Positions 1 through 16,771 of a stretch of 64,000 nt of DNA are shown piece by piece. The notes beneath the pieces were generated by a model. That model was not told the origin of the DNA and ran no database searches. It was given only the letters and a program-made list of their open reading frames with translations. The stretch lies in the NCBI GenBank assembly GCA_965207065.1, contig OZ242260.1, forward strand, positions 3,744,001 to 3,808,000, in the 5' to 3' direction. The DNA comes from a bacterium. Its GTDB lineage: Bacteria; UBA8248. The position numbers were made by a program, and so were the translations under genes. The first letter of the stretch is position 1. Every line of letters begins with the position of its first letter.

Positions 1-3
1 ATT

Positions 4-1551
4 TTATGGATTCACTTCTTTCAACCGAATCGTAGGCAGGTAGATTCTCTCATCCGGTCTCGGCGTCCACTGTGTCCTCGCGCTCAGACCGAAAAAATCA
101 TACTGGTTCCAGAGAAACACCCATGGGCTATCCGCGCGAACAATGCGCTGCATCCGGTAGCTGATTCTTCTGCGCTCAGCGGGGTCGAACGTCTGACCGA
201 GCTTCTTGTAGTTTCGAATGAACTCGCGGTTTCTCCAGGCGGTGAGGTTCGCGAACAGGTTGGGCCTCAACACGCCCAAATCGAGCTCTTCGTTGAAGGC
301 GGAGCTGAACCCGTGAAAATACAAGGGCGCCAGCGTCTTTTTCCTTCTTCTCGCGAGGAAAACGGACCACTCCAGCGGAATCACCTCCACGTGGACGCCC
401 ACGGTTCGGAAATAAGCAGCCAAAAATTCAGATATCTCCTTTCCTTTCAGATACCTGGATGCAGGAACTTCAAGTTGTATCTCAAATGGTTTTCCATTCA
501 TTTCCAGCACGCCGTCCCCATTCGTGTCCTTAAGGCCGGCCTCGGCGAGGAGCGCCTTCGCCTTTCGGGGATCGTAGGCGTACGCCTTCATGTCCGGGGC
601 GGCGTTCGGGGGGTTCACGATGCTCCGCATCCGCGAACCGTGACCCAGAAAAACGTTTTTTGCGATTGCCTCGAAATCAATCGCATGATTCAGCGCCCGG
701 CGGATGCGTACATCGCCCAGCACCCCGTGATCCGTGCGAATCCCCAGGTAAATCCTGCGTCCTCCCCGAGTCCCTTTGAGCTGCAGACCTTCTCCTCTCG
801 CCAGGATGGTTTTCGACTGATCGGGCGAGATGTTCATAATAATGTCGGCCCCGCCCGTCTCAAGTTCCGCTATCCGGGCCGATGCCTCGGCCACCGGCCT
901 CCAGAACACTTTTTTTATCGCAGGCTTACCCCGCCACCAGCCCTTGTTGGCCGCCATCTCGATGCGGTCGTCCTTGATCCATTTCACCAGTTTGTAGGGC
1001 CCAGTTCCCACAGGTTTTTTCAACAATTCCTTGGGCGGAGTCGACGAATAATACCTGGGCGGCAGCATGAAAGCGTTGACCATCCAGACCGGCAGGGTGG
1101 CTACCGGACGCTTCGTGTGAATCTTCACGGTGTGGGAATCCACTTTTTCTATCCTGTCGAGGAATATCCGCCTGTACACCGTGATGCGCGGCTTCAGCTT
1201 CTTATCCCGCATCCGATCGAACGTATAGCGCACGGATTCTGCATCGAACGGCTCGCCGTTATGAAACTTCACACCCTTGCGGAGATGAAACGTCCAGACT
1301 TTTTTCGTCTCATCCACCTCCCAGCGCTCGGCCAGAGCGGGACCCAGCGTCATATCGCCGCGCCGCTCGATGAGCGGGTCGAACATGTTCATCAAGATGC
1401 TCCACTCGATGGTGGCGGTGGCGAAATGGGGGTCGAGCGTATTGGCCTCCACCGAGAGGATAACCGTGAAAGGCCCTTTTTTCGCTTCGCGGCCGCAGGC
1501 GGTGAGCGCCACGAGCAGCAGGCAAAATCCGCACAACAAGGCCCTTTTCAT
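4..1551 (-). CDS. Peptide/nickel ABC transporter substrate-binding lipoprotein (SBP family 5)
   Basis: Lipobox-like LTAC after signal peptide MKRALL (ATG 1551; the ORF track extends to 1575); LAERW..WTFHLRKGVKFHNG and PVGTGPYK motifs. Confidence 0.93.
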   Translation of the reverse strand: MKRALLCGFCLLLVALTACGREAKKGPFTVILSVEANTLDPHFATATIEWSILMNMFDPLIERRGDMTLGPALAERWEVDETKKVWTFHLRKGVKFHNGEPFDAESVRYTFDRMRDKKLKPRITVYRRIFLDRIEKVDSHTVKIHTKRPVATLPVWMVNAFMLPPRYYSSTPPKELLKKPVGTGPYKLVKWIKDDRIEMAANKGWWRGKPAIKKVFWRPVAEASARIAELETGGADIIMNISPDQSKTILARGEGLQLKGTRGGRRIYLGIRTDHGVLGDVRIRRALNHAIDFEAIAKNVFLGHGSRMRSIVNPPNAAPDMKAYAYDPRKAKALLAEAGLKDTNGDGVLEMNGKPFEIQLEVPASRYLKGKEISEFLAAYFRTVGVHVEVIPLEWSVFLARRRKKTLAPLYFHGFSSAFNEELDLGVLRPNLFANLTAWRNREFIRNYKKLGQTFDPAERRRISYRMQRIVRADSPWVFLWNQYDFFGLSARTQWTPRPDERIYLPTIRLKEVNP

Positions 1552-1580
1552 GCGCAAATTTCCTTCAAAAAGCAAAACGA

Positions 1581-2513
1581 CTACATATCATCGCCGAGGC
1601 GGGGGTCCATGTAATCCCGCAGCCAGTCGCCGATGAGGTTGATGCTCAAAACCGTCGCCATGATGGCGAGACCCGGAAAAGTCGCCATCCACCACGCGCC
1701 TCTCAGATATTCGCGCCCTTCGGAGAGCATGCCCCCCCAGGTGACGACAGAAGGCGGAACGCCGAGCCCCAGGAAACTGAGCGAGGATTCGGAAATAATG
1801 TTTCCCGCCACGGCGAAGGTGGCGATGACGATGAGAGGCGAGAGGGTGTTGGGCAGAATCTGCATGAACAATATGCGGTATACGGGATAGCCCAGGGCGT
1901 GGGTGGCCTCCACGAATTCGCGCTCCCTTATCGAGATGACCTGGCCTCTCACCACGCGGCCATACGCCACCCACCGGCTGATCCCCAGTACGATGATGAT
2001 GTTGAACAGGCCCGGCCCGATGACCGCCATGATCGTGATCGCCAGCAAAATAAAGGGAAACGCCAGTTGAATCTCGGAAAACCCGCTGATGAGATCGTCT
2101 ATTTTCCCGCCGAAAAAGCCGGAAACAAGACCCAGAACGATGCCGATCACCCCCGAAATCACCACCGAACTCAAGCCCACCAGAATGGAGACGCGGCCCC
2201 CGTAAATGAGCCGGCTCAGAATATCCCGGCCCAGCGCGTCGGTTCCCAGCATATAGCTCGCGCTTCCTCCCTCCATCCAAACGGGAGGCTTCAGACGCAG
2301 GTTCACGTCCACCTTACTCGGGTTTTGCGGCGCGATGAGAGGAGCCGTAAGGGAAAAGACGACCAGCATAATGAGGAAAACGCCGCCGAGCATCGCCGGT
2401 TTGGATCGCATCATGCTCCGTCGGAATATCTCCCACCTGAGCTCCGATTCCGACATCATGGGGTATACATCCGATTCAAAAGCAGATTCGGACATTGTTC
2501 TATCTTCGGACAT
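1581..2513 (-). CDS. Peptide ABC transporter permease (DppC/OppC-like)
   Basis: LGTDALGRDILSRLIYGGRVS; EAA-like loop EFVEATHALG; ESSLSFLGLG; GDWLRD. Confidence 0.93.
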   Translation of the reverse strand: MSEDRTMSESAFESDVYPMMSESELRWEIFRRSMMRSKPAMLGGVFLIMLVVFSLTAPLIAPQNPSKVDVNLRLKPPVWMEGGSASYMLGTDALGRDILSRLIYGGRVSILVGLSSVVISGVIGIVLGLVSGFFGGKIDDLISGFSEIQLAFPFILLAITIMAVIGPGLFNIIIVLGISRWVAYGRVVRGQVISIREREFVEATHALGYPVYRILFMQILPNTLSPLIVIATFAVAGNIISESSLSFLGLGVPPSVVTWGGMLSEGREYLRGAWWMATFPGLAIMATVLSINLIGDWLRDYMDPRLGDDM

Positions 2514-2665
2514 TCACCTGCTCTCGCGCCTCGGAGGCGGTAATTCGGGAGTTGATTCGCTTTGTATCCTAGCATAGCGCACTGTGAGTTGCAGAAAAAT
2601 TGTCAATACCGAAATGTCGAATTGTGTTGATATCCACAAGGCTATCGAATTAGAATCGCCTGTTT

Positions 2666-4159
2666 TTGAATTTTGGAGCCGCTTGGACAATTGTGAAGAT
2701 TCTCGGTGAAGGAATTCTCTCCTTGCCCTCCTACAATAAAGATAATTTCAATGAAGTGCTGATTTCCGCCGTTCCGGACGGATCGACGTTCGGTTTCCAG
2801 GGCCTGCGCGCAGTCGATTCGATCACCATGGAGAGCATCGTCCCCCTCGATTTCCTCATCGCCTGCGACTACGGACTCGACGGGCCTGAATGGGACAGGC
2901 GCCTGCGCTATTTCGCCGTGGAGCGCGGGCAAAACAAGCGCATCGTGTGGACGCACTCATCCCTCGTAGAAGCATACGAAGGAGCGTTGGGTTCGCAAAT
3001 TCGGAAATTTCTCTCAATTGGAGATGCTCCCCGGTACGTCATCCCCTACCGCTCCACGGAATTCCTCGGCAAACTCGCAGAAGAAGCCGATGGCAGGCTC
3101 CGCATCCTGGCGAATCCGGTGGAAATCAAGACGAGATTCGACGACAAAATTTCCTTCCGGCGCCGGGCCGTCGAAGCGGGGTTCGCCGTTCCACCGGGCG
3201 ACGTGGTGGCGTTGGGCGAACTTGGGCCCAATCAAATCGAGCAATTCGGGCCTGTCATGATCATTTCGGAGCAAATCGGCTCCTCAGGCAACCAGACGCA
3301 CCTCATCGACTCACCCGAGGCGCTCGCGAATAAACGCGATGAACTCATCGAAAAGCTGGGAGCCGATGCGCCGGTGATCGTCAGTACGTTTCTAAGCGGG
3401 CCCGCCGTCGGCACGGCGGGGCTGATTTATGGCGGCAAACCCTGGATGTCTCATCCTTCGGTGATGTTCACGGGCATCCCCGGCTGTTCAATGCACCGCT
3501 TCGATTACGCCGGAAGCGACTATGCGGCGTATCGGCTGGTTTCCGAAAAGAGCCGGCGAAAAATCGAGGAATTCACTCTGAAAATCGGAGAATGGATAGC
3601 CGAGGCGGGCTACCGGGGTATATACGGCGTCGATTTCATCGTCCATCAGGACGAACCCTACGCCCTCGAACTCAACCCTCGCGTGCTGGGAACCACGCAA
3701 CTGATGACCGAACTCGAGGAAAAACACAGCAGCGCACCCACCACCACCTACTGGCATCTGGCCGAATTCCTGAATCCGGACGCCGCTCTCGACGCGCATC
3801 AGGATCTGCTCGCCGAACTCAGCCGACCGGATTTATCCGGTTACCAGCTTTTGATTCGAAACACGAGGAGCTCGAAAATGAGAATCGGCCATTCGCTGGA
3901 GCCCGGCATCTACACCATCCAGAATGGGAGGCCTGAATTCATCCGGCGAGGCTTCCGCCTGAGCGACGTTCAAGGGCAGGATGAGGTGCTCGTCACTTGC
4001 TCTCCTCCGGCGAAAGGCACCATAGTAGAGCCGAGGGGAGCGTTCTGTAAGCTTGAGGGCGTCTCATCCATCTATGAAGGGGAAGAAGAGCAGATATCCT
4101 CCGCCGCCCGGGAAATGATAGATGTATTCACGCGCAGTCTCGCTCTTTCTCCCGCTTAG
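2666..4159 (+). CDS. ATP-grasp-fold protein, probable peptide/amide ligase (start uncertain)
   Basis: FDDKISFR, GSSGNQT loop, GYRGIYGVDFIV, ALELNPR (ExN). Confidence 0.75.
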   Translation: MNFGAAWTIVKILGEGILSLPSYNKDNFNEVLISAVPDGSTFGFQGLRAVDSITMESIVPLDFLIACDYGLDGPEWDRRLRYFAVERGQNKRIVWTHSSLVEAYEGALGSQIRKFLSIGDAPRYVIPYRSTEFLGKLAEEADGRLRILANPVEIKTRFDDKISFRRRAVEAGFAVPPGDVVALGELGPNQIEQFGPVMIISEQIGSSGNQTHLIDSPEALANKRDELIEKLGADAPVIVSTFLSGPAVGTAGLIYGGKPWMSHPSVMFTGIPGCSMHRFDYAGSDYAAYRLVSEKSRRKIEEFTLKIGEWIAEAGYRGIYGVDFIVHQDEPYALELNPRVLGTTQLMTELEEKHSSAPTTTYWHLAEFLNPDAALDAHQDLLAELSRPDLSGYQLLIRNTRSSKMRIGHSLEPGIYTIQNGRPEFIRRGFRLSDVQGQDEVLVTCSPPAKGTIVEPRGAFCKLEGVSSIYEGEEEQISSAAREMIDVFTRSLALSPA

Positions 4160-4172
4160 GACTTGGTGAAAA

Positions 4173-5342
4173 TTGAAACCAGATTTATTCGCATCCACCA
4201 CCCGAGGATTGTTTCTGTCGCCTGAAAGCCCATTTACGTTTGAGGGGGAATTCACACCCGACCCCAGGCCCGTTCCCTCAAACGGAATCGCGCTGGGCGA
4301 AGTCGTCGCGACGCCCAAGAACGCTCCCATCGATCGCCTGGAATCACTCGAAGTCCTCCGGGGAACGCAGGACGCCTGGAATACGAGCGAAATTAAATTG
4401 CGCGAAAAAATGAACGTGGCCGTTGCGATCGGCGGGCGCTATGCGAATCGCAGCATTTCGGGCCGAGAGCCGGACTCGCCCGCAGAGCCCGGAGCCGTAC
4501 TCGACCTGTTGAACGTCGGCGGCGTCTGCGGGATCCGCGCGAACCCCGAAACGCCGTGCGTCAAAATAGAGGTGAAAGGGGGCGTCTCGCTTCGAGGCGA
4601 ACCCGCTCAGCTTTCCCATCTCCCCGTCATCCCCGATACAAGGTGCCCCGTGGATGAAGAGGGAATTCCCTGCGCTCCCATCATCCTGGTGACCGGCTCC
4701 GAGATGGACGTGGGTAAAACGACATGCGCCTCTTCGCTCGCCTCCGCCCTTCACTCTTCGGGCATCCACGTCTCATACGTGAAACTCACCGGAACCGGCC
4801 GGATGCGGGATCTCATGCAGGTGAACTACGGAAGGCCGCTCGGGTTTTTCGACTCGGCGAGACTCGGCTGGGATTTCGTCGATGCGGGTCTTGCTTCCAC
4901 GTGCGGCGTCCCTGGACACAGGGTCAGGCGATGCGCCCAAAACCTGCTTCGCCACGCATGCGCGAAGGCGGAAATCGTAATTGCGGAACTGGCGGATTCT
5001 CCCTCATCGGACGCCAGCCTTCACGTAGCGAGCGACCCATGGGTCAGAGACTGGCTCGCGCGCAGGGGTCTGTTAATCTGCGCATGTGATACGCTGGAAT
5101 CAACACTCATCGTTCATTGGATTAGAAGCCACCTGGGGGTGGATGAGGAGAACATGCTGATTTCCGGAAGGCTCGCCAACGAAGCGCACGCGCGCGAGGA
5201 GGCGTACCGGATGACGGGGATACGCGCCTTGAGCTGCATCGCCCCGAACCCCACCTCCCTTGCAACCGACAATGCCGTGGGCGGCGCCATTGCGGACTGG
5301 GTGATCAAACACTTCATGCGTCAGCGCAAGTCGGTGTTCTAG
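4173..5342 (+). CDS. DUF1611-like P-loop protein
   Basis: ILVTGSEMDVGKTT Walker A, VKLTGTG, DFVDAGLAST, N-terminal GGRYA and GGVCG segments. Confidence 0.7.
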   Translation: MKPDLFASTTRGLFLSPESPFTFEGEFTPDPRPVPSNGIALGEVVATPKNAPIDRLESLEVLRGTQDAWNTSEIKLREKMNVAVAIGGRYANRSISGREPDSPAEPGAVLDLLNVGGVCGIRANPETPCVKIEVKGGVSLRGEPAQLSHLPVIPDTRCPVDEEGIPCAPIILVTGSEMDVGKTTCASSLASALHSSGIHVSYVKLTGTGRMRDLMQVNYGRPLGFFDSARLGWDFVDAGLASTCGVPGHRVRRCAQNLLRHACAKAEIVIAELADSPSSDASLHVASDPWVRDWLARRGLLICACDTLESTLIVHWIRSHLGVDEENMLISGRLANEAHAREEAYRMTGIRALSCIAPNPTSLATDNAVGGAIADWVIKHFMRQRKSVF

Positions 5343-5359
5343 GTCTCGAGAGCGAAACC

Positions 5360-6976
5360 TTGGCCTCACGTAAAACATTCAACCATCCCCGAATCGCACG
5401 TGAACCCTCTCTCTACCATCTCACGCCCGATGCAAGCGGCGGCGCCTGGGATCTGTACCGCGTGAGCCAGGAGTTCGATTCGATTGAAGGTGATCTGAAC
5501 GAAACGCTAATCGAAAGCCTCAACCACTGGGCGTCGCGCGAGCCCCGTTTCACAGACTTGCGCATTCTGGAAGACTCGCCACCCATTCAACGCCCGGGAG
5601 AAATCCTTTTGCTGGACGGCTCCCCGAGCCGACTGCCCCTCACCATGGAAACGGCGCGCGTAATGAGAGCGCACTTGAAGCAACTCGGGCTGTCCATCCC
5701 CGTCAGGGTACTGAACCGGCGCGAAGAACTTCTGGCGCGCGCCGCAAAGGCACCGAAAGAACTGCTCGTCATCAGTCAGACCGCCCAGAGAAGCCTCTAC
5801 GACGCGACCCTCGCCAAGGTTCTGGAGGAGCGGGGAATCGTCGTGGCGCCGGGGTCTCTCACCGCTCCCGGCGGGCCGCTCTCCAACAAGAAAACCACCT
5901 ATGAACTCCTGAATGGAAACGGCGAGAACGTCCAAAACCCGAAATCGGACGGGCATGGACATCGGCTGACAGCCCGCTATGAAGTGGTGGAATTAAACGG
6001 GGGAAGACCTGCGGACACCGCCGCCGCCATCCTGGATTCCGCCTCCGCCTTGTCGCAGAAATGGGGGGCGGGGACTTTCTTCGTCAAACCGCAAGAAGGC
6101 GGCGGGGGACGTGGATGTTTCCGGCTGGACGTCTACCCCAACGGGTTCGGGATGCCGGATTTAAGCAGGCTCGGCGTAGCGGCGGAACATGCGACACCCC
6201 TGCCCTTGTCCCTTGACGCGGAAAACCCCTATCACCTCCAGGCGATGGACTGGCTTGTTCAACGCTTCCAGGCCAGCCCTGCGACTTCGAGAGCCTATAT
6301 CAAGACCCAAAGGGTGGAAGGCGGCTCTTCACCGGACGTTTTGGGGGAAATGCTCAGGAACTGCGCGCCCAGACTCGAATCCGAACTGCGCGAAGCATCC
6401 CGCTCCCGGGAGGATTCGATTCGCCTCCTGGCGAGCGCCATCGAAAACTACGAGCAGGTATTCGACACGCGCTATCTGCCGCTGATATGCAACTGGATCG
6501 ATTTCGGCCTGTTCAGCATCCGCGTGCATCTGAGACTCAGCCGCGAGGGAATCGTTGTGGAAACGATCTACGCCCGGCTATTTCCGGTGGAATTCTCGGA
6601 TGATTCGGTCGGGGTCGTCGGCGTGGACAGCATTACGAACCGCACGGAGGGAGGCATGGAACTGAACCGCTATGCGCCATTGTTACCCCCTCTGGTCGCA
6701 TACGCGGGAGGCGCGGAGAGATTGTGCGAGAAGATTCGCGGCGCTTTTGACGCGTTCGCGCGCTTTTTGTCCCTCCTCGACCCCGGGGAGCGCGGCAGAG
6801 TGCCAGTTCGGGCCGAATTCGACCTATCGCCGCTCAACGGCCTGATCGCCGAGGGCAACGCCGACCCCGTCCGCGCCCAATGCGCCAACAGCCGCTGGGA
6901 AAGGTTCAGCGAAAACTGCGCGCAGTGGACGGATGACGCCTTGTCGTTCTACTCATGGAAATCTCAAAAAGTCTAA
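5360..6976 (+). CDS. Divergent ATP-grasp-fold protein
   Basis: SNKKTTYELL, FFVKPQEGGGGRGCF, EFDL..LIAEGNADP (ExN); long insertion between the B and C subdomains. Confidence 0.65.
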   Translation: MASRKTFNHPRIAREPSLYHLTPDASGGAWDLYRVSQEFDSIEGDLNETLIESLNHWASREPRFTDLRILEDSPPIQRPGEILLLDGSPSRLPLTMETARVMRAHLKQLGLSIPVRVLNRREELLARAAKAPKELLVISQTAQRSLYDATLAKVLEERGIVVAPGSLTAPGGPLSNKKTTYELLNGNGENVQNPKSDGHGHRLTARYEVVELNGGRPADTAAAILDSASALSQKWGAGTFFVKPQEGGGGRGCFRLDVYPNGFGMPDLSRLGVAAEHATPLPLSLDAENPYHLQAMDWLVQRFQASPATSRAYIKTQRVEGGSSPDVLGEMLRNCAPRLESELREASRSREDSIRLLASAIENYEQVFDTRYLPLICNWIDFGLFSIRVHLRLSREGIVVETIYARLFPVEFSDDSVGVVGVDSITNRTEGGMELNRYAPLLPPLVAYAGGAERLCEKIRGAFDAFARFLSLLDPGERGRVPVRAEFDLSPLNGLIAEGNADPVRAQCANSRWERFSENCAQWTDDALSFYSWKSQKV

Positions 6977-7065
6977 GCTAGAATCAACCTGTTCAGCACA
7001 GCCTGCGTTCCGGAAATCCCAGAGGGCGGGATACACGCGAAGGACCCTCATCCACCGCTCTACAA

Positions 7066-10000
7066 GTGATTGACATGGCGAAACTCCTCAAAAAAGCCTT
7101 CAACATCCAGGAAGAGGAGTTGCTCGTCTTCTCGGTATTCTTTTTCTTCTACTTCCTGATCGGGGTCCAGTTCTCCATCGGGCTCACCGTATCCGAAGCC
7201 CTGTTCCTCTCGGAAGTCGGCCCGGGCTTTCTCCCCTATATGTATATATTCAACGCCCTGATGATCATCTTCATCAGCACTTTCTACTCCTCGCTCACAG
7301 AAAAACTCTCGATTCCGGCGATGTTCAAGACCGTCTTGATCTTTTTCATCGCGCTCGTCTTCGGCATCAAATTGCTTATATTCGCCGATTTCCGCGCCTA
7401 TGCGATGCCGATCGCGTTTCCGCTTCTCCACACGCTGTTCGTCATGTTCACGAACATGCTGCCGAACAATTTCCGTGCCCTTTACGGCCAGTACCTGGAC
7501 GTTTTGCAATCCAAGCGGCTCGTTCCGATCATCCTCACCGGGGGGCGCTACGGCGGTATAGTGGGCGGTCTGGCGATTCCGCTCCTGATCCCCGTACTTG
7601 GGAGCGTCTCGAACCTGCTCTATATATGGATCGGCGCCATCGTCGTCAGCATCGGGGTGGTGCAGTACGCAGAATGGCGGCTCAGAGACCATCTCATCGA
7701 AGACGCGGGCCCAAAAAAACGCAAAACGACGAAGAAGACGGCATCAAAAGGCGGCAATCTCGCACTGATGAAGTCGAACAAATATGTCTGCGCGTTCGCG
7801 CTTTTCAGCTTCATCGTTGTGATTCTCAGGAGTTTTCAGGATTTCCAGTACAGCCTCATCTTCCGCGAGGTTTATCCCGATCGCGCGCAACTCGCCTCGT
7901 TCCTCGGGTATTTCACCGCCATCGGGAGCGCCTTCTCGCTGCTCGTGCAGACGTTCATCACCCCGCGCATCATCAAGCGGCTCGGACTGGGAACGGCGAA
8001 CCTCCTCTACCCGCTCACGACCATCATCGGCCTTGCCGGCATGGCGATTTCGCCCGGTTTCTATTCCGCCGTCTTCCTGCGCTTCAACAACAAGAATCTC
8101 CAGGAATCGATTCGAAACGCCATCAACGCCCTGCTCTATAACGCCGTCTCCCCCTCGATCCGCGCGCGCGTGGGCGCGTTCGTCGCCGGCCAGGTGGTCG
8201 CCGTGGCCAGCATCGTCAGCGGCGTCACCCTGCTCATCATCAAACCCACCGGCCTCGCCCTATTCCCCCTGAGCGCAGGCCAATTGGCGCTCATCTCCCT
8301 GTTCATCGCGTTCGCCTATCTCGCCACAGGCTTCTTCGTGCGCCATGAATACGGCGCCGCGCTGCGCCGAATGCTCGAGGAGCGAAACCTGGGGCTGTTC
8401 CGCTACGCCCAGGAGGGATACGGCCCGGTTGACGATGAGAACATGGCGATACTCAGAAAAAACATCCGCGAGGGGGATGACGATCTTAGCGTCTTCACGG
8501 CACAGATGATGGCGGAAAGCGGCAGAAGCGAAACCAGTCAAATTATTCTCGAAGAAGTCCCCCGGCGGAAAGGACATGCGGCGGCCGAGTTGCTGAAAAT
8601 TCTCGCCAAGGCGCCCGGCGCCGAAGTGGGCGAGAAAATACGGCCCCTGCTGGAGGAATACCTCACTTGCGAGGAGCCCGTCCTGCAGTGCGCCGCCATG
8701 GATGCGGCCGAATCCATCGGACTGACGGAGGAAACGGCGGAACTGGTTCACGAGAACCTGGAGAGCGGCTCCCCCGAAGTCAGGGCGCGCGCCGTCGAGC
8801 TGCTTGTACGCTCCGATGACCTGTTCTGGCTCGCCAACGGCCTCCAAACGCTCCACCGGATGCTGAACGAAGAAGACGCGGCGGCCAGAGTCTGCGCCCT
8901 CAGGTGCATGGGAGAGCTCCAGAATCCGCGCTTCATCAAACGGTTGATTCCCTATCTCTACCAGAACGAGGAGAAAGTCCGCGAAGCCGCTTTGGAGGCG
9001 ATAGAAGTTCTGGCCATGAACCAGGGGGTCGATGAGGAGAGCATGGACGAAGTCATCCGGGTGACCACCTCGGATGAGAGTGCGGCCATCAGGCGAAGAG
9101 GCGTCCGGCAACTGGGCAACAAAGGCACGCGGGAGAATTTCGAACGCGCCCTGACCGCTCTTTCGGACGTCGATTCTCTGGTGAGGCGAGAGGCCGTCGA
9201 ATCGCTCAAGAACATGAAGCGAAAAGGAACCCTCTCTCTCGAAGGCTCCGGTCTTGTATCGTTCATCGCTCCGCTGTTGTTCAAAAGCGCGAAAAACGGC
9301 TCCCGCGAGATGAGCGAGCAGGAAATCGTGGACTCCCTCTCCGGGTTCGCAGTCGAACACCTGAAGGAGGTGTATGACGTCATCAATCACCTGCACGTCA
9401 TCGAACGCCGGGAAAACGTATCCGCCTTCACGATGTTAAGAAAAGCGCTCGAAGACGTCGTCGCGGAAAGACAACTCGTCCTGCTGGAATTGCTGGGGGT
9501 GATAGGGGACGAGAAAACGGTGGACACCGTGTCGGAGTCCCTCTCCCGGGGCGGCTCCTCATCGAGAGCGATCGCCATCGAGACGCTCTCGAACTTCTCC
9601 TCGACAGGAAATACGAGACTCCTGATTCTGGCCCTGGAGCCTCTGTTGCTCGGCAGATCGACCGCCGATAAGGTTTCCGAGGGCAGGAAACTATGGGAGA
9701 TACCCGAAAAATCGATCGATGAGGTTCTGACGACCTACATGGATTCCGAGAACGCGTGGCTGGAAGCCATCGCCGTGGATGCGGCGGGCAAACATCTTGC
9801 CGGCGAAGCGGATGGAGAAACCGCCTCGCGGCGCGCGCAGTTCAAGGAGCGGGCAACCGAGGGCGACCCGTACGTCCGTGAGGCCGCGGTTGCCGCTTTA
9901 AGAATAATCAAGAAAGATGAAGACGACGTTGTGTCGTTATTCAGAACCCTGGAAAATGACGAGAGTCAACAGGTTCGCCTTCAGGTACGCCGCGAACTCC

Positions 10001-10476
10001 TGCGTTATGAGGGAAGCGGCGAAAATCTATCCGAACAGGAGAAAATCATGCTCTCGACCATCGAAAAAGCCTTGTTCCTGAAAGGCGTCAACATGTTCGA
10101 GACGATGAGCGCGGATGAACTGAAAATACTGAGCAACATTTCCAGGGAAATTCAGATAGAGGCGGGAAAGGTTCTTTTCGAGCAGGGAGACCCCTGCGAT
10201 TACCTCTATGTCATCGTGGATGGGGAAATAGAGATCATCCTCAACCAGGAGAGCGGGGAACCCAGGATTCTCGCCACGCTCGCCCCCCCGAACTCGTTCG
10301 GTGAAATCGCGCTGTTTGGCGATGAGGGAAGAAGCGCAGGCGCGCGCGCGAGCCGGGACACCTCACTGCTGGGCATCGAAAAAGAACCTCTTCTCGAACT
10401 GATCCACGAGCACCCGACCATCTCCATCGCCATCATCGGCCAGCTCGCCGGCATCATCAGAAGCCAGAACGAATAG
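7066..10476 (+). CDS. NTT/TLC-like MFS transporter fused to HEAT repeats and a C-terminal cNMP-binding domain
   Basis: About 12 hydrophobic segments (SEALFLSEVG, LQSKRLVPII); PEVRARAVE/VREAA repeats; FEQGDPCDYLYVIVDG..FGEIALF..RSA. Confidence 0.85.
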   Translation: MIDMAKLLKKAFNIQEEELLVFSVFFFFYFLIGVQFSIGLTVSEALFLSEVGPGFLPYMYIFNALMIIFISTFYSSLTEKLSIPAMFKTVLIFFIALVFGIKLLIFADFRAYAMPIAFPLLHTLFVMFTNMLPNNFRALYGQYLDVLQSKRLVPIILTGGRYGGIVGGLAIPLLIPVLGSVSNLLYIWIGAIVVSIGVVQYAEWRLRDHLIEDAGPKKRKTTKKTASKGGNLALMKSNKYVCAFALFSFIVVILRSFQDFQYSLIFREVYPDRAQLASFLGYFTAIGSAFSLLVQTFITPRIIKRLGLGTANLLYPLTTIIGLAGMAISPGFYSAVFLRFNNKNLQESIRNAINALLYNAVSPSIRARVGAFVAGQVVAVASIVSGVTLLIIKPTGLALFPLSAGQLALISLFIAFAYLATGFFVRHEYGAALRRMLEERNLGLFRYAQEGYGPVDDENMAILRKNIREGDDDLSVFTAQMMAESGRSETSQIILEEVPRRKGHAAAELLKILAKAPGAEVGEKIRPLLEEYLTCEEPVLQCAAMDAAESIGLTEETAELVHENLESGSPEVRARAVELLVRSDDLFWLANGLQTLHRMLNEEDAAARVCALRCMGELQNPRFIKRLIPYLYQNEEKVREAALEAIEVLAMNQGVDEESMDEVIRVTTSDESAAIRRRGVRQLGNKGTRENFERALTALSDVDSLVRREAVESLKNMKRKGTLSLEGSGLVSFIAPLLFKSAKNGSREMSEQEIVDSLSGFAVEHLKEVYDVINHLHVIERRENVSAFTMLRKALEDVVAERQLVLLELLGVIGDEKTVDTVSESLSRGGSSSRAIAIETLSNFSSTGNTRLLILALEPLLLGRSTADKVSEGRKLWEIPEKSIDEVLTTYMDSENAWLEAIAVDAAGKHLAGEADGETASRRAQFKERATEGDPYVREAAVAALRIIKKDEDDVVSLFRTLENDESQQVRLQVRRELLRYEGSGENLSEQEKIMLSTIEKALFLKGVNMFETMSADELKILSNISREIQIEAGKVLFEQGDPCDYLYVIVDGEIEIILNQESGEPRILATLAPPNSFGEIALFGDEGRSAGARASRDTSLLGIEKEPLLELIHEHPTISIAIIGQLAGIIRSQNE

Positions 10477-10601
10477 CTTGGGGCAAGACGACGCGCCGCA
10501 TGAGCGCCCGATGTCTTCATCGTGAACCACATCTTGTTTTCCGCATATTCTCCCCGTCTGGAGGCGGGTATACGTTGCATTGAAACTACCCCCTTTTAAG
10601 G

Positions 10602-10630
10602 TTGACGCCCGCCCTGCCCGTACCTATAAT
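10602..10630 (+). promoter_or_regulatory. Sigma70-type promoter of the multiheme cytochrome c gene
   Basis: TTGACG-17 bp-TATAAT. Confidence 0.75.
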
Positions 10631-10677
10631 CAGCCGGATTTTAGCCAAGAAACCCGGAATTTCCGCTCAGAACGCCG

Positions 10678-13626
10678 GTGGGGGAGCGTTTTTTCAAGAT
10701 GCAAGGTCGAGACTTCAAGCCTCCGGAAGAGAAAACCAGTCCAATCACGTTTTTCATCCTAGGCCTCATCATGGTCGCGGTGACGTTTTGGACCGTCTGG
10801 GACGAAGCGTTCACGCGCAGACCCTGGAAGCAATACCAGAAACAGTTCAACGCCTATGAAAGAACCCAGGTAGAGAAAGAACTCGCCAGTCTCAAGAAAA
10901 CCACGGGTTCCGCGGTCGCCGACCTCGACAAGAAAATCGCCGCGCAACAACAAAAACTCGCCACAGACGAAGAACTCAAACAACTCAAGGACGAACTCAC
11001 GAAAAGCGAGTTGGACGCTTTCGAGAAAGTGCAGGAGCTGGCCTTCAGAAAAGCGCTTTTCGATCAGTCCTACTTCTATCTTCAGGAAGCCATCCGGCAG
11101 GGACACGATAAAGAAGCCGAGCAAAAGGAAGTCGACGAAGCCAAGGCCCTGCTCGATGAGATAACACCCATCGCGGCGAAAGCCGAAGCTGCCAGAGACG
11201 CGATAAAGGCGAAGATTGAGGCCAAAGAAAAAGAGTTGAAAACGCTCGAAGCGACGAGACGAAAAGTGGCGGGCGATATTTCCTTCCAGGAGCGCCGGCT
11301 GAAAGGCATCGCCGCCCGCCCCTATGAAATCAGCCAACTCGTCCTTCGCGAATACGAACGCAACAATTTCAACGAACCCGTGATGAAAGTCGAACGGTGC
11401 CAGACCTGTCACCTGGGCATCAACAGGGCGGGCTTCGAGGATGCGCCCCAGCCGTTCCGCACGCATCCCAACAGACGCCTGTATCTCTCGACGCACGAAT
11501 TCAACAAGGTCGGCTGCACGCTTTGCCACGGCGGCCAGGGAACGGCCGTCACCAGCCTCAATACGGCCCACGGCTATGTGCAATTCTGGGAAGACCCCCT
11601 CCTCCGCGGCAGCGAAACGCAAACCAAGTGCAGAAGCTGCCACACCGAGATATTCAACATTCCCGAAGCGCCCAAAATCTCGCGCGGCATCTCGCTCACC
11701 CGGGAACTCGGATGCAACGGCTGCCACACCCTCCCGGGCACGGAAGGCCTGCGCAAGGTGGGGCCGGACCTCTCGAGAATCCAGGAGAAAGTGGCGCCCG
11801 CCTGGCTCGTCTCCTGGGTCAAAAGGCCGAAAGACTACAACCCGCGCACCCGGATGCCCTATTTCAGCCTGACGGACCAGGACGCGCTGGACATCGCCAC
11901 ATACGTCTGGCGGCAGGGCCCGCGCAAGGTGGAATCGGCCGAGTTCCCGAATCTGGACGACGCCTCTCTGATACAAAAAGGAAAATCCGTATTCGAAGAC
12001 GTCGGTTGTCTGGGCTGTCACATCCGCAACGAAAAAGATGCGGAACCCGGGCCCCCGCTCGAGGGCGTGAACGGCAGGCCCCTCGTGTACAGGAACCGCG
12101 ATTTCGCGCCGGCGCTTCAGAACATCGGCGCCAAGGTCCAGCCCGACTGGCTGTTCCGGTGGCTGAAAAACCCGAAGGCGTACTGGCATGACACCAAGAT
12201 GCCGAGCCTTCGACTCACGGATGAGGAGGCGAGCGCGGTCACCTCGTATCTCATCAGCCTCACGCCCGCCTCGAAGCGGCCCAAACCCCGGAAGCTGGGC
12301 GATGAGGCCTCCTTTGAGCGCGGCAAGAAACTCGTGGCGACGCGCGGTTGTTTCGGCTGCCACGTCATCCCCGGCACCGAGAAACTCTCGAAAATCGGGC
12401 CGGACCTGACACGATTCGCCGCCAAAAAACCGTTCGAACTATCGTTCGGCAACGTGGTGGATATGCCCCACACATGGGAATCCTGGACCTTCGGGAAGCT
12501 CAAAAACCCGCAACTCTACCAGACAGAGCGCGAGACGCTGCTCATGCCGAACTTCGAATTCTCGGACGCGGAAGTCTCCTCCATTCGCACCCTGCTGCGC
12601 TCCATGACGCCGCACGGCGCGCCGCACAGCGTCCACCAGGTGCTCGACACGCGCGCCCGGCGAATCGAAAACGGCCGCCGGATGATCGAGAAATACAACT
12701 GCAACGGCTGCCACGTCATCGAGAATTGGGGCGGCGACCTCCTCAGGCGCTATGAAGACAAGACGAACGGCCCGCCACTGCTGAACGGCGAGGGCAGAAA
12801 AGTCCAGCCCGATTGGTTCTTCGGCTTCCTGCGCAACGTCGTGACGCTGAGGCCATGGCTCAAGGTGCGGATGCCCAGCTTCCAGATGCCCGACGAAGAC
12901 GCCGCGGCACTCGTGGACTACTTCGCCGCGCTGGACTCGAAACTGAACCCCTACATCCATTTCGACGCCAAGAGCGTGAGCGCGGAAAACTACAAGGCCG
13001 GAAAGCAACTCTTCGAGATGGCCGAATGTCTGGCCTGTCATGGCGCATGGCCGCCTCCGCCGGGGCAGGAGCCACCGACGGCGCCGAACCTCTCGTTCGC
13101 CAAGAATCGCCTGCGTCCCGACTGGGTAGTCGACTGGCTGATATATCCGGGCAGAATCCAGCCCGGAACCAAGATGCCGAATTTCTTCGAGGGCGCGGGT
13201 TCAGTGGCCGATATCGTCAAGGGCGTCCAGGGAGAGAAGGAAGACGACCTGTTCATCTACGAGCTCGAAGCCACCAAGGAAGTCGAATTGCCGGAAGAGC
13301 AATTCGCCACCCTGCGGGTCGGAGGCGCTACCCACCTCGTGAAGGTAACGGAAATCGATGAAAAGAAAATGACCATCTCCTCGCCCACCGATCTCGGAAA
13401 GAGCATCGGCAAAGCGACGATAGAGAGCCACGGCGAGCCCATCGACGAGGAACTCCTCGGGGGAGACGCGTACCGGCAAATCCGCGCGATGCGCGATTAC
13501 ATGATGATCGAGACGAATTTCCTCAAACCCGCTGAGTCCAGCGCGAAGAACGAGGCGCCTCAAACGGATAAACCCGAAAAAGAAGCCGAGAACAAACAGA
13601 CAGATAGCGACGCATCGCCTGGCTAG
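10678..13626 (+). CDS. Membrane-anchored octaheme c-type cytochrome (likely partner of the Rieske/cyt b complex)
   Basis: Eight CxxCH motifs (CQTCH, CTLCH, CRSCH, CNGCH, CLGCH, CFGCH, CNGCH, CLACH); N-terminal TM plus coiled coil; repeated GP.L..W..P....MP units. Confidence 0.9.
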   Translation: MGERFFKMQGRDFKPPEEKTSPITFFILGLIMVAVTFWTVWDEAFTRRPWKQYQKQFNAYERTQVEKELASLKKTTGSAVADLDKKIAAQQQKLATDEELKQLKDELTKSELDAFEKVQELAFRKALFDQSYFYLQEAIRQGHDKEAEQKEVDEAKALLDEITPIAAKAEAARDAIKAKIEAKEKELKTLEATRRKVAGDISFQERRLKGIAARPYEISQLVLREYERNNFNEPVMKVERCQTCHLGINRAGFEDAPQPFRTHPNRRLYLSTHEFNKVGCTLCHGGQGTAVTSLNTAHGYVQFWEDPLLRGSETQTKCRSCHTEIFNIPEAPKISRGISLTRELGCNGCHTLPGTEGLRKVGPDLSRIQEKVAPAWLVSWVKRPKDYNPRTRMPYFSLTDQDALDIATYVWRQGPRKVESAEFPNLDDASLIQKGKSVFEDVGCLGCHIRNEKDAEPGPPLEGVNGRPLVYRNRDFAPALQNIGAKVQPDWLFRWLKNPKAYWHDTKMPSLRLTDEEASAVTSYLISLTPASKRPKPRKLGDEASFERGKKLVATRGCFGCHVIPGTEKLSKIGPDLTRFAAKKPFELSFGNVVDMPHTWESWTFGKLKNPQLYQTERETLLMPNFEFSDAEVSSIRTLLRSMTPHGAPHSVHQVLDTRARRIENGRRMIEKYNCNGCHVIENWGGDLLRRYEDKTNGPPLLNGEGRKVQPDWFFGFLRNVVTLRPWLKVRMPSFQMPDEDAAALVDYFAALDSKLNPYIHFDAKSVSAENYKAGKQLFEMAECLACHGAWPPPPGQEPPTAPNLSFAKNRLRPDWVVDWLIYPGRIQPGTKMPNFFEGAGSVADIVKGVQGEKEDDLFIYELEATKEVELPEEQFATLRVGGATHLVKVTEIDEKKMTISSPTDLGKSIGKATIESHGEPIDEELLGGDAYRQIRAMRDYMMIETNFLKPAESSAKNEAPQTDKPEKEAENKQTDSDASPG

Positions 13627-13648
13627 GTTTTAACATTCCACATAAAAC

Positions 13649-13677
13649 AAGCGCCTCGAACGGGGCGCTTTTTTTAT
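13649..13677 (+). terminator. Rho-independent terminator between the convergent cytochrome c and nfi genes
   Basis: aagcgcctc-gaac-ggggcgctt followed by a T run. Confidence 0.75.
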
Positions 13678-14363
13678 GCTCTTTTCCGCTTCTTCCGCTC
13701 CTCACCCACGCGCCTGTGGGCCGCGCGTATCACCTCGGGGAGGCGGAATCTGGAAGTGGCCGCAAGCACCCAATGGAGCGAATCTTCGATGTCGATAAGG
13801 TGGCCGGGAGAAACGTACACGGGCTTCACGCCCCGCCTCGTCCTGAGAACGGCGCCTATCTCCAGCCCATCGGGTGAGCGCAGGTATCGCCAATCGCCCT
13901 TCTCCTCTCCCGGCGGTTCGGCCGCTTCGCCGAACAAGCGGCTCTTGGCGCACCCGATGGAAGGCACGCCCAGCCGAAGGCCCAGGTGCGAGGCGATGCC
14001 GAATCCCCTGGGATGGGCCGTGCCCTGACCGTCGAAGATGATGAGGTCCGGTTTTTCCCTCAATCCCAGAAATGCTTCTTCGAGCAAAAACCCTTCCCGG
14101 AAAGAGAGCAGCCCCGGCACGTAGGGGAACCGCAAATCTCCGCCGTAGAATGATTCGTCGATGAGCTGCATATCCGGCCAGGAGAAAACGACCATGCCCC
14201 CGACGCCGAAGCGGCCGCGCCACTCGCATGAGATATCGGCGCCCGCAATCGTTTTCGGCGCGGCGGACAACGGATGCAGGGCCAGGTGTTTTTCAAGCGC
14301 TTTTTGGAGCCGAACCGCTTCGGAGGGCGCGATCTCCCAGGAATGATGGAGCGAGTCGGTCAT
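13674..14363 (-). CDS. nfi: Endonuclease V (deoxyinosine 3' endonuclease)
   Basis: GADIS, FPYVPGLLSFRE, DGQGTAHPRGFGIASHLG, GCAKSRL, PVYVSPGH, RLPE. Confidence 0.95.
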   Translation of the reverse strand: MTDSLHHSWEIAPSEAVRLQKALEKHLALHPLSAAPKTIAGADISCEWRGRFGVGGMVVFSWPDMQLIDESFYGGDLRFPYVPGLLSFREGFLLEEAFLGLREKPDLIIFDGQGTAHPRGFGIASHLGLRLGVPSIGCAKSRLFGEAAEPPGEEKGDWRYLRSPDGLEIGAVLRTRRGVKPVYVSPGHLIDIEDSLHWVLAATSRFRLPEVIRAAHRRVGEERKKRKRA

Positions 14364-14470
14364 GAATCCGCTATCGATCCTTGAAGGGGCGAGTGGCTAA
14401 CGGCGTCATTCGCCTCGGTGATGAGACGATGGGGATGCGCGCCATTACGCCGAGACGGCGGGAAAGAGAC

Positions 14471-16771
14471 CTACTCCGTGGGAATCTGCGGAACCTTCCC
14501 CTTGACCGGGGCCACCTCGGGTGCGATGCGGTTGACGGAGTAGATATATTTTTCGCCGCGAACCTTCTTGACGACTTCATTGAGTTGGGCCAGATCATGC
14601 ACCTGAACGTCCAGACGAATCTTCGCCCTGCTCCCGGAGGTCTCGGCCTCGACACGCGAGATGTTCGCATCACAGGTCGCGATGTCGGCGCTCAGGCTCG
14701 CCAGCACGCCCGGCCTGTCGCGCGCCTCGATGACGAGCGTCACCAGGTGCATCTGATCCTTGTCGACTTCCCCCCAGGAAACCTCCACCAGGCGCTCCTG
14801 ATCGTCCATCAGCGCCTTGATGTTGGGACAATTCTCGTTGTGCACCGTCACGCCGCGTCCGCGCGTGATGAAACCCACGATCCCGTCGCCCGGAATCGGC
14901 TGGCAGCATTTCCCGTAACGGATCAAAACGTCGTCCTGGCCTTTGACGAGGATGCCCGATTTGTTCTTGTGGCGGCTCACGCGGTTCACGAGGCGCCTGA
15001 GGCGGGAGTTCTCCCGCTTTTCCCGCTCGCGCACGAGTTGTTCGGGCAACAGCTTGTGCACCACCTGCCGCGCGGATACGCGACCGAAGCCAATCGACGT
15101 CAGCAAGTCTTCATCGCTCTGAACCCCGAAGGAGCGCGCCACCTGCTGCAGCTCCCCGGGCTTCATGTATCCCTCGACTTCCTTCTTCTCCACGCATCGC
15201 TCCAGCTCATGTTCGAGCAACTCATGGCCGAGCGTGAGGGAGCGCTCTTTCTGTTCCTGCCTGATCCAGTTTCTGATTTTCTGCTTCGCCCGGGCGGTGA
15301 CGACGAACTTCAGCCAGTCCGCACTGGGCCTGCGGTGCGGATTCGTGATGATCTCGACGATGTCGCCGTTCTCGAGCAGCGTGCTGAGCGGCGTGATTTT
15401 TCCGTTCACCTTCACGCCTACGCAACGGCTCCCCACTTCCGTATGGATGGAGAAAGCGTAATCCACCGGTGTCGCCCCGCGCGGAAGGCTCTTCACCTCA
15501 CCCCGGGGCGTAAAGACGAACACCTCGTCCTGAAACAGATTCACCTTGACGGAGTCGACCAGATTCCTGGGGTCGGACTCCTCGTTCAGGCTTTCCACGA
15601 TTCTCCTGATCCACTCGAATTTGTCGGCCATGCCGTCGTCGGCCTCATCGCCCCCCTTGTACTTCCAGTGCGCGGCGATGCCCTCCTCCGCCACCCGGTG
15701 CATTTCCCTGGTGCGAATCTGGAACTCCACCCTCTGGCCCTCCGGCCCCACCACGGTGGTGTGAAGAGACTGATACAGATTCGCCTTGGGGAGTGCGATG
15801 TAGTCCTTGAAGCGGCCGGGGATGGGCGTCCATTTCGAGTGCAGGACGCCTAATACCGCGTAACAATCCTTCATGGAATCCACGATGATTCTTACGCCGC
15901 AAATGTCATACACCTGATGGAAATCGAGGTTTTGCGTCTGCATTTTCTCATAGATGCTGGAGTGGAGCTTGAACCTGGCGGACGCGGCGCCGTCGACGCC
16001 TTCGAGTTCCAGGCTCTCCTTCACCTGCTCGATGATCAGTTCCATGTATGCTTCGCGATCCTTGAGGCCGTCCCGGAGCATCTCGTCGATTTCGATAAAT
16101 TCCTTGGGATGCAGGTGCTTGAACGCCACGTCCTCGAGTGCTCCCTTGAGCCATCCGATGCCGATGCGATTGGCGAGCGGCGCGTATATTTCCGCGGTCT
16201 CCCGCGCAATGCGTTCTCTGCTTTTCTGGGGGAGGTGGTGGAGCGTCAGCGCGTTGTGGAGCCTGTCGGCGAGTTTGATGATGATGACGCGAATATCCTT
16301 CGCCATGGCGATCAGCATCTTGCGGTAGCTTTCCGCCTGGCGAACCTGTGTGTTCGAGACGTCGATCTTGGCGAGCTTCGTGACGCCGTCCACGAGTTCG
16401 GCGACGTCATGTCCGAAATGCTCGTCAACTTCCTTGAGCGTCGTGGCGGTGTCCTCCACGGTGTCATGGAGAAGCCCCGCGCATACGGTCTCGGGGTCCT
16501 GGCGCAACTCCGCCAGAAGCCGGGCCACTTCCAACGGGTGGGATATGTAGGGTTCGCCGGAAATGCGGGATTGTCCCTTATGGACCTTCGCCGTGAAGAT
16601 ATATGCTTTGGTGAGCAGATCCGAGCAGTCGGGCGAGTAATCCTCGACCAGATCGACGATGTCCATGATCCGGGCGGGAGGGCGTGACGTCAAAACTGGA
16701 GGCAACGAATTTCCTCCTCTTTCGACTTGCTCGGCCTGATGACGAAAAAGAGCAAAATCAGACCCTTGCAA
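14471..16771 (-). CDS. Bifunctional (p)ppGpp synthetase/hydrolase, RelA/SpoT family (true start probably downstream of 16771)
   Basis: Intact HD motif LLHDTVED, KLADRLHN, GRFKDYI, YQSLHT, EFQIRT, TGS and ACT domains. Confidence 0.95.
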   Translation of the reverse strand: MQGSDFALFRHQAEQVERGGNSLPPVLTSRPPARIMDIVDLVEDYSPDCSDLLTKAYIFTAKVHKGQSRISGEPYISHPLEVARLLAELRQDPETVCAGLLHDTVEDTATTLKEVDEHFGHDVAELVDGVTKLAKIDVSNTQVRQAESYRKMLIAMAKDIRVIIIKLADRLHNALTLHHLPQKSRERIARETAEIYAPLANRIGIGWLKGALEDVAFKHLHPKEFIEIDEMLRDGLKDREAYMELIIEQVKESLELEGVDGAASARFKLHSSIYEKMQTQNLDFHQVYDICGVRIIVDSMKDCYAVLGVLHSKWTPIPGRFKDYIALPKANLYQSLHTTVVGPEGQRVEFQIRTREMHRVAEEGIAAHWKYKGGDEADDGMADKFEWIRRIVESLNEESDPRNLVDSVKVNLFQDEVFVFTPRGEVKSLPRGATPVDYAFSIHTEVGSRCVGVKVNGKITPLSTLLENGDIVEIITNPHRRPSADWLKFVVTARAKQKIRNWIRQEQKERSLTLGHELLEHELERCVEKKEVEGYMKPGELQQVARSFGVQSDEDLLTSIGFGRVSARQVVHKLLPEQLVREREKRENSRLRRLVNRVSRHKNKSGILVKGQDDVLIRYGKCCQPIPGDGIVGFITRGRGVTVHNENCPNIKALMDDQERLVEVSWGEVDKDQMHLVTLVIEARDRPGVLASLSADIATCDANISRVEAETSGSRAKIRLDVQVHDLAQLNEVVKKVRGEKYIYSVNRIAPEVAPVKGKVPQIPTE

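Follow-up and report, generated by a model that had tools for sequence, protein, structure and literature searches.

A four-gene unit of Nitrospinota built around a cross-phylum pair of unrelated ATP-grasp ligases: a candidate amide-ligation pathway

Introduction

ATP-grasp ligases such as RimK, LysX/ArgX and the tubulin ligases add amino acids to proteins or their C-termini, and a comparable logic of successive ATP-dependent ligations yields small capped peptides, as in the GshA/GshB route to glutathione and the Ngg/AsnO route to N-acetylglutaminylglutamine amide, with one ATP-grasp enzyme. Membrane proteins that join an NTT-type carrier domain to HEAT repeats and a domain for binding cyclic nucleotides (cNBD) form another described group; Major, Embley and Williams 2017 (PMC5381601) reported this architecture without assigning it a function, and the excerpted text of that paper describes such fusions as widespread in bacteria, in other contexts. 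The present study concerns a locus in which two ligase-like genes and a gene for such a fusion stand in one row: four genes, here called G1 to G4, at positions 2666-10476 of a 64,000-nucleotide (nt) stretch of bacterial DNA (contig OZ242260.1, positions 3,744,001 to 3,808,000; the whole stretch is referred to as the window). The genome around the window is a single contig of 4.48 Mb, and its close relatives carry the labels Nitrospinae or Nitrospinota.

An earlier note, made from the sequence alone, had described G1 to G4 as four co-directional genes with gaps of 13, 17 and 89 nt (G1-G2, G2-G3 and G3-G4, respectively), and this layout is borne out by the open reading frames (ORFs), all on the + strand (Table 1). 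The combination had not been recognised there as a described pathway; in agreement with this, a literature search, in which some topics were judged by title only, found no published description of the G1-G2-G3-G4 combination. The enzymes themselves belong to known superfamilies and represent no new category.

Results

The conserved core of the locus is a pair of ligase genes, G1 and G3, that is shared across phyla, whereas G2 and G4 are Nitrospinota additions, because the latter two are absent from the loci found outside that group. A metagenome scan with a 9-sequence alignment gave 69 loci, which were analysed together with one further locus (L046) as 70 non-Nitrospinota loci; a G3 ORF was called in 68 of these, and a G2 or G4 match at an expectation value (E) of 1e-3 or better in none of the 70. 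Wherever more than 1500 nt of upstream sequence was available, G1 was found immediately upstream of G3 on the same strand (47/47 loci), and the two genes overlap by 4 nt at 32 of the 55 called junctions. Since the non-Nitrospinota loci collapse into four G3 clusters at 60% identity (34, 22, 1 and 1 members), only three of which show the G1-G3 pair besides Nitrospinota, the independent support for the pairing is a handful of lineages, not 47.

Several other genes recur beside the pair in these lineages. Of the 39 loci with room for it, 31 have a metallopeptidase gene of the MATCAP (PF08014) / QEGLA (TIGR02421) type directly upstream of G1, and a CstA transporter gene lies directly downstream of G3 in 15 of 50 non-Nitrospinota loci. 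In one lineage the locus also holds a SagB-type peptide dehydrogenase (122 bits against a cut-off of 78.4) and a radical-SAM gene resembling spore photoproduct lyase; another lineage has a citrate synthase upstream. In L046 (253-6461), which is labelled 'uncultured archaeon', the G1-G3 pair stands without MATCAP, and a LarC-type nickel-insertion gene is present on the opposite strand.

Within Nitrospinota and its kin, 26 of 30 related loci have the genes in the order G1-G2-G3-G4, the remaining four being truncated by contig ends, and at 34-37% protein identity this gene order also persists in a genome from another family of the same taxonomic order (L012); the four-gene arrangement is not due to chance. 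Co-occurrence elsewhere had been named by the earlier note as a test of its proposal, and it was found both as this conserved order and as the G1-G3 pair in other phyla. The proposal that all four genes form one system therefore stands in part: the unit is conserved in Nitrospinota, but the core that crosses phyla consists only of G1 and G3, with G2 and G4 confined to Nitrospinota and kin.

Presence and absence were also compared across 41 related genomes, which are kin, so that the counts are not independent. G3 and G4 (E 1e-30 or better) are present in the identical 25 of the 41 genomes, and G1 is found in the same 25 and as fragments in one more, the congener G015. Neither G1, G3 nor G4 occurs in any of the seven genomes of a neighbouring family (f4), and the five G3-lacking genomes that were closely examined have no full-length G4. 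In G015, which is 97% complete, the locus is a decayed copy (L126; G015:C1:2736000-2755999, about 10436-12822): the adjoining OppC-type gene is reduced to a 57-residue remnant, G1 is reduced to residues 27-80 and 425-497 (about 345 deleted), neither G3 nor G4 is left, and G2 is followed directly by the gene for cytochrome c. Because of this decay, the four-gene unit is seen to be dispensable, and G3 and G4 were lost together.

The assignment of G3 as an ATP-grasp protein, made in the earlier note, comes from structure. No Pfam or NCBIfam model matched G3 at E 0.1 or better, and PDB sequences gave nothing relevant when searched by single sequence or by profile. An AlphaFold model built from a 27-sequence alignment (predicted local distance difference test, pLDDT, 84.7; predicted template modelling score, pTM, 0.88) matched D-Ala-D-Ala ligases (Ddl), PurK and PurT in Foldseek (E 4e-6 and above, probability 1.00), and VIA-align gave Z scores of 19.3 for both ArgX and DcsG (274-281 residues aligned, 274 for ArgX), 18.2 for LysX, 17.5 for RimK, 16.2 for Ddl and 15.5 for GshB, the span aligned with ATP-grasp relatives being 265-287 residues. 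The structural check that the earlier note had proposed thus came out positive here, and by its predicted structure G3 is a divergent three-domain ATP-grasp protein of the RimK/LysX/Ddl branch. Invariant in both a 27- and a 16-sequence alignment are K243-P, the glycine loop at 247-252, R388/H390/R392, D488 and E498-G-N500-A-D502, whose ATP-grasp roles were assigned by motif position.

With RimK, LysX, ArgX, GshB, Ddl and DcsG, G3 shares the fold, the lysine, the glycine-rich loop and the E-x-N metal site, and on the strength of the model the same chemistry, an acyl-phosphate followed by an amide, is likely. It differs from the RimK-branch enzymes in its length (about 540 amino acids, aa, compared with about 280-330), in an extra N-terminal segment and a helical insert of about 100 residues (approximately 265-370 in the model), in being accompanied by a second, unrelated ATP-grasp protein and in remaining undetected by sequence profiles. 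The family is small: a full HMMER search of 1.84 billion cluster representatives gave 44 matches, 29 of them at E 1e-30 or better, and a few of the 44 are named KSB1, Elusimicrobiota, Portnoybacteria or DPANN. A graspetide system of the microviridin type was considered and rejected, given that a small-ORF search of the three spacers of the four-gene unit gave short, unremarkable frames only and that G1 and G3 measure 490-540 aa, as compared with about 320 aa for MdnB/C-type ligases; graspetide ligases align with G3 at Z 11.6-13.3, under RimK and LysX.

G1 is recognised by a sequence model. The Pfam model ATP-grasp_3 is matched at 28.8 bits (cut-off 23.2) over residues 160-343 and, together with the E-x-N motif, upholds the earlier call of a first ATP-grasp protein; among PDB sequences, PurD and the alpha subunit of propionyl-CoA carboxylase are matched at E 3e-4. 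Its conserved residues comprise K155, D159, K161, GSSG at 205-208, D323 and E335-x-N337-P-R339, and the metal-site residues among them (D323, E335, N337 and R339) are kept across 58 relatives. Both E-x-N motifs pointed out in the earlier note are in place, ELNPR at G1 335-339 and EGNAD at G3 498-502, and both are invariant or nearly so in relatives down to 25-33% identity.

The closest likeness of G1 among NCBIfam models is PRK06524 'biotin carboxylase', a group of uncharacterised proteins of about 480-490 aa from Proteobacteria and Actinomycetota, and the ESM Atlas neighbours of G1 are of the same kind. G1 scores only 62 bits against this model, far under the 684-bit cut-off, shares 24-27% identity with proteins named 'biotin carboxylase', and differs from them in that its clade is the one linked to G3. 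An origin of G1 and G3 as diverged duplicates of each other was rejected at the sequence level (hhalign probability 1.7%). In one congener (G012:C20:256280-257764), the G1 orthologue contains a single in-frame TGA, which could reflect recoding, recent pseudogene formation or an error in sequencing.

G2 consists of a beta-rich N-domain (residues 1 to about 165) and a P-loop domain of the BioD/CTP-synthase/DUF1611 type (about 166-389), with an AlphaFold pLDDT of 91.8. The Walker A motif reported earlier for this gene is found as GSEMDVGKTT at residues 175-184, and Pfam and NCBIfam models give sub-threshold matches at this region only (AAA_26 19.8, DUF1611 16.9 and bioD 23.1 bits); for DUF1611 (PF07755), the cut-off is 25, and the weakest family relative (P0158) reaches 24.6. 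Structural matches are spread over the superfamily: Foldseek returned ATPase-type HypB, CTP synthase and BioD (E 6e-7 to 4e-6), and the VIA-align Z scores were 14.6 for 2g0t (DUF1611), 14.2 for CTP synthase, 14.0 for 2obn (DUF1611), 13.3 for DgcN and 12.6 for BioD. The DgcN comparison covers 237 aligned residues at a root-mean-square deviation of 5.1; as a whole, these structural comparisons barely probe the N-domain. By profile, the G2 family matches BioD of M. tuberculosis (E 1.4e-5), with the Walker A and K..TG motifs aligned, residues which we take to be the site of substrate phosphorylation in BioD.

The earlier description of G2 as a DUF1611-like P-loop protein holds in so far as the P-loop is confirmed and DUF1611 proteins are among the best structural matches; they are tied there with CTP synthase and BioD, and BioD is the nearest solved protein by profile. 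G2 thus shares the P-loop fold with BioD, the amidoligase domain of CTP synthase and the DUF1611 proteins (TM0796, Ava_3511 and the N-acetyltransferase DgcN), and with BioD also the type of Walker A and K..TG motif, and differs from all of them in falling under every family cut-off. A role as the housekeeping BioD (TIGR00347) was rejected, since G2 family scores are 23-24 bits against a cut-off of 83.3 and the canonical bioD sits elsewhere in the genome (149 bits). The G2 family is limited to genomes labelled Nitrospinota and Tectomicrobia.

G4 combines an NTT-like domain of 12 transmembrane helices (about residues 1-440), HEAT repeats (about 478-973) and a domain binding cyclic nucleoside monophosphates (cNMP; 1030-1116). 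Of the NTT-HEAT-cNMP transporter named in the earlier note, the HEAT repeats (HEAT_2, 84 bits in four stretches) and the cNMP_binding domain (75.2 bits) are clear from Pfam; the membrane domain has no meaningful Pfam match, with TLC (PF03219) unmatched at E 1 or better, and is instead linked to NTT carriers by a profile of 10 orthologues, which matches PDB entry 9j3n, 'ADP,ATP carrier protein 1', at E 2.1e-5 over about 200 residues. The 30 ESM Atlas feature matches listed for G4 all belong to one TLC/MFS family set (best score 0.98). With its distantly NTT-like membrane domain, G4 has the same three-part architecture as the NTT-HEAT-cNBD fusions and is, as they are in the excerpted text of PMC5381601, functionally uncharacterised. 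It differs from them in a membrane domain too divergent for Pfam TLC and in being tied by co-occurrence to a ligase operon, a link that the excerpts of that paper do not mention.

The coordinates of the genes, promoter-like sites and flanking features are collected in Table 1. The true start of G1 is more likely GTG 2693 than TTG 2666, because in an alignment TTG 2666 is TTC in a close relative, which keeps GTG 2693 and the preceding GGAG, and because the later start fits the length of database copies, which are mostly 478-488 aa. For G4, all 13 aligned sequences share ATG 7075, which is more likely the true start, so that the G3-G4 spacer would measure 98 nt.

A consensus scan of the region gave five promoter-like sites, a count not above the chance expectation of 3.0 +/- 1.9. 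Upstream of G1, the -10 block (about 2649-2656) hardly varies among 12 aligned relatives. Another conserved block, ATCCTAGCATA, lies at about 2566-2576 in the divergent spacer 5' of G1 and would correspond, on the minus strand, to a -10-like TATGCT facing the opp-like genes. The spacer between G1 and the opp-like unit is variable across the family except at these two blocks, which are probably the -10 elements of back-to-back promoters. Directly 3' of the G3 stop, a TAGAAT-like block is kept in most of 13 aligned relatives, the most distant of which has TATAAT; the -35-like part of this site falls within conserved G3 coding sequence, where conservation says little. An Rfam scan of positions 1-14000 gave no match at E 1 or better, and hence no known riboswitch that could hint at a ligand. 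An anti-phage defence system was rejected, since PADLOC models gave no match for G1, G2 or G3 and only generic HEAT and cNMP-domain matches (19-30 bits) for G4.

Table 1. Genes, promoter-like sites and flanking features of the locus (positions in the window).
Feature	Position	Strand	Basis or remark
G1	2666-4159	+	ORF, 497 aa
G2	4173-5342	+	ORF, 389 aa
G3	5360-6976	+	ORF, 538 aa
G4	7066-10476	+	ORF, 1136 aa
Promoter-like site upstream of G1, TTGATA-18-TAGAAT	2627-2656	+	consensus scan 10/12
Promoter-like site at end of G3 / upstream of G4, TGGAAA-17-TAGAAT	6956-6984	+	consensus scan 9/12
Family-5 solute-binding protein	4-1575	-	Pfam
OppC-type permease	1581-2513	-	Pfam
Promoter-like site upstream of cytochrome c	10602-10630	+	consensus scan 11/12, best of region
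Multi-haem cytochrome c, 982 aa	10678-13626	+	three Cytochrom_C stretches and c7/c3/MtrC-like parts
Endonuclease V (229 aa) and full-length RelA/SpoT (766 aa)	13674-16771	-	syntenic across family

The divergent opp-like unit runs on beyond the window (L127 7369-10002) with an OppB-type permease, the end of which abuts the start of an HDAC-family deacetylase (PF00850, 302 bits), and then with a TetR gene. No ABC ATPase gene is found in this row. The opp-like unit adjoins G1 across the family, in which the whole neighbourhood is syntenic by descent. An importer and a deacylase beside the ligase operon are suggestive of an acylated-peptide cycle, although this is unproven.

Discussion

The reading preferred here, in which we place moderate confidence, is that successive ATP-dependent amide ligations make a short peptide-like product, with G2 performing a third step and G4 acting as the carrier. 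The folds, catalytic motifs, gene order, co-occurrence and co-loss are observed; from them we infer as follows what chemistry is done and in which order, what the product is and which way transport runs. G1 and G3 would each activate a carboxyl group as an acyl-phosphate and then join it to an amine; acting in sequence, they would build a short amide-linked (peptide-like) product or extend the end of a peptide. G2 would probably carry out a third ATP-dependent activation on the same molecule, leading to amidation or to a ureido group or ring closure, or alternatively, if it is DgcN-like, an N-acylation. Substrate or product would then probably be moved across the membrane by the NTT-like carrier of G4 under cNMP control.

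A peptide-like product is favoured because the metal sites of both ligases are kept, because their nearest structural kin join carboxylates to amines, whether on small molecules, amino acids or the C-termini of proteins, and because peptidases, peptide dehydrogenases and transporters for peptides or small acids recur nearby. The contexts that support a theme of peptides and transport are the MATCAP, CstA, SagB-type and radical-SAM genes of the other lineages and the opp-like importer beside the Nitrospinota unit. The logic would be that of the glutathione and N-acetylglutaminylglutamine amide pathways; in contrast to these, the enzyme set is different, with no sequence relationship found, and G2 takes the place of the GNAT or amidotransferase enzyme. 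We know of no product of the GshA/GshB or Ngg/AsnO type from Nitrospinota.

Several observations weigh against this reading. In G1, the ATP-contacting lysine usual in the 'vvKP' strand ahead of the glycine loop is replaced, by S in the window and by Q, E or R in relatives, so that G1 might act in a non-canonical way or even lack catalysis; two other lysines of the G1 family, K155 and K161, are invariant instead. The structural neighbours of the G3 model do not fix a substrate. An archaeal-looking contig (L051, 2-2496) has G3 with no adjacent G1, and the 891 nt that it has upstream of G3 hold the end of an archaellum ArlJ/FlaJ-like gene. In G015, G2 is intact (82% identity) despite the loss of G3 and G4. 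With G2 and G4 missing from all of the loci outside Nitrospinota, what links them to the pair comes from a single lineage with a wholly syntenic neighbourhood. Finally, a conserved promoter-like element of its own and a spacer of 98 nt precede G4, whose family is, according to the excerpts of PMC5381601, widespread without G1/G3 ligases.

The points concerning G4 lead to the first alternative, a possible though rather unlikely one that is compatible with the core of G1 and G3: the functional unit would be G1-G2-G3, or G1 and G3 only, and G4 would be a separately regulated, conserved neighbour. Besides the promoter-like element after the G3 stop, the spacer, the 70 loci without G4 and the fusions found elsewhere in bacteria in the excerpted text, the equal synteny of the opp-like, cytochrome c, endonuclease V and RelA flanks across the family speaks for such an arrangement. 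It is opposed by the presence of G3 and G4 in the identical 25 of 41 genomes with no full-length G4 in the five examined genomes lacking G3, by their joint deletion in G015, where the next gene, for cytochrome c, stayed, and by an adjacency that holds at 37% identity in L012, where cytochrome c is no longer found downstream. Additionally, another lineage has a different transporter, CstA, at the same position after G3.

A second alternative, which is judged unlikely, is that G1 and G3 act as a 'writer' that tails a ribosomal peptide or protein at its C-terminus or side chains, with a MATCAP-type peptidase as the 'eraser' and no free small molecule. The three protein-tailing enzymes ArgX, LysX and RimK are among the best structural matches of the G3 model, as would be expected of a writer, and the MATCAP/QEGLA gene directly upstream of the pair in 31/39 loci and the SagB-type 'peptide dehydrogenase' with its radical-SAM gene in one lineage fit as well. 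However, the small-molecule enzymes DcsG (Z 19.3) and Ddl (16.2) score as high as the protein ligases, the spacers yielded only the unremarkable small frames mentioned above, and none of G1, G2, G3 or G4 has a conserved acidic C-terminal tail. When the window's genome was searched with the Pfam model, no MATCAP appeared, although the control genomes of the same search were likewise blank. In two separate contexts the pair has transporters beside it, which is a better fit for a diffusible compound.

A more elaborate form of this idea, to which only a small probability is given, is that G1 and G3 would be a prokaryotic peptide-tailing writer with MATCAP as eraser, a counterpart of the tubulin ligase/MATCAP cycle, which would have been rewired in Nitrospinota with a BioD-like enzyme and an NTT-HEAT-cNBD carrier. 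In a variant, a capped peptide would be exported by G4, re-imported by the opp-like importer and de-acylated by its HDAC-family partner. If true, this would provide the first functional handle on the sequence-invisible ATP-grasp family and on the NTT-HEAT-cNBD proteins.

Lastly, it is highly improbable that G1 and G3 build a reserve of cyanophycin-like, non-ribosomal amino-acid polymer, with one ligase for the backbone, one for the side branches and a MATCAP-type carboxypeptidase for mobilisation: two different ATP-dependent ligase sites would be analogous to those of cyanophycin synthetase, and other lineages have the 'carbon starvation' transporter CstA as well as a partner of carboxypeptidase type, but cyanophycin synthetase was not matched in the NCBIfam, Foldseek or VIA-align searches, nothing stands out as a primer-binding or oligomerisation domain, and the peptidase partner was not found in Nitrospinota in the weakly controlled search of the window's genome.

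Conclusions

The reading of G1 to G4 as a pathway of successive amide ligations, with a cross-phylum ligase pair at its core, bears on several protein groups at once. The ATP-grasp family that G3 defines is invisible to sequence models and yet, in Nitrospinota as in at least three other lineages, is locked to another ligase; therefore, an amide-bond product would appear to be made across phyla, if the modelled fold of G3 is a guide to its chemistry. Additionally, two orphan groups gain a partner context from the operon, namely the MATCAP/QEGLA peptidases of bacteria and the membrane proteins of the NTT-HEAT-cNBD type. Among marine nitrite oxidisers, Nitrospinota are the main group, and a metabolite with its own regulated carrier, whether it serves as osmolyte, signal or symbiosis factor, would be a new element of their physiology.

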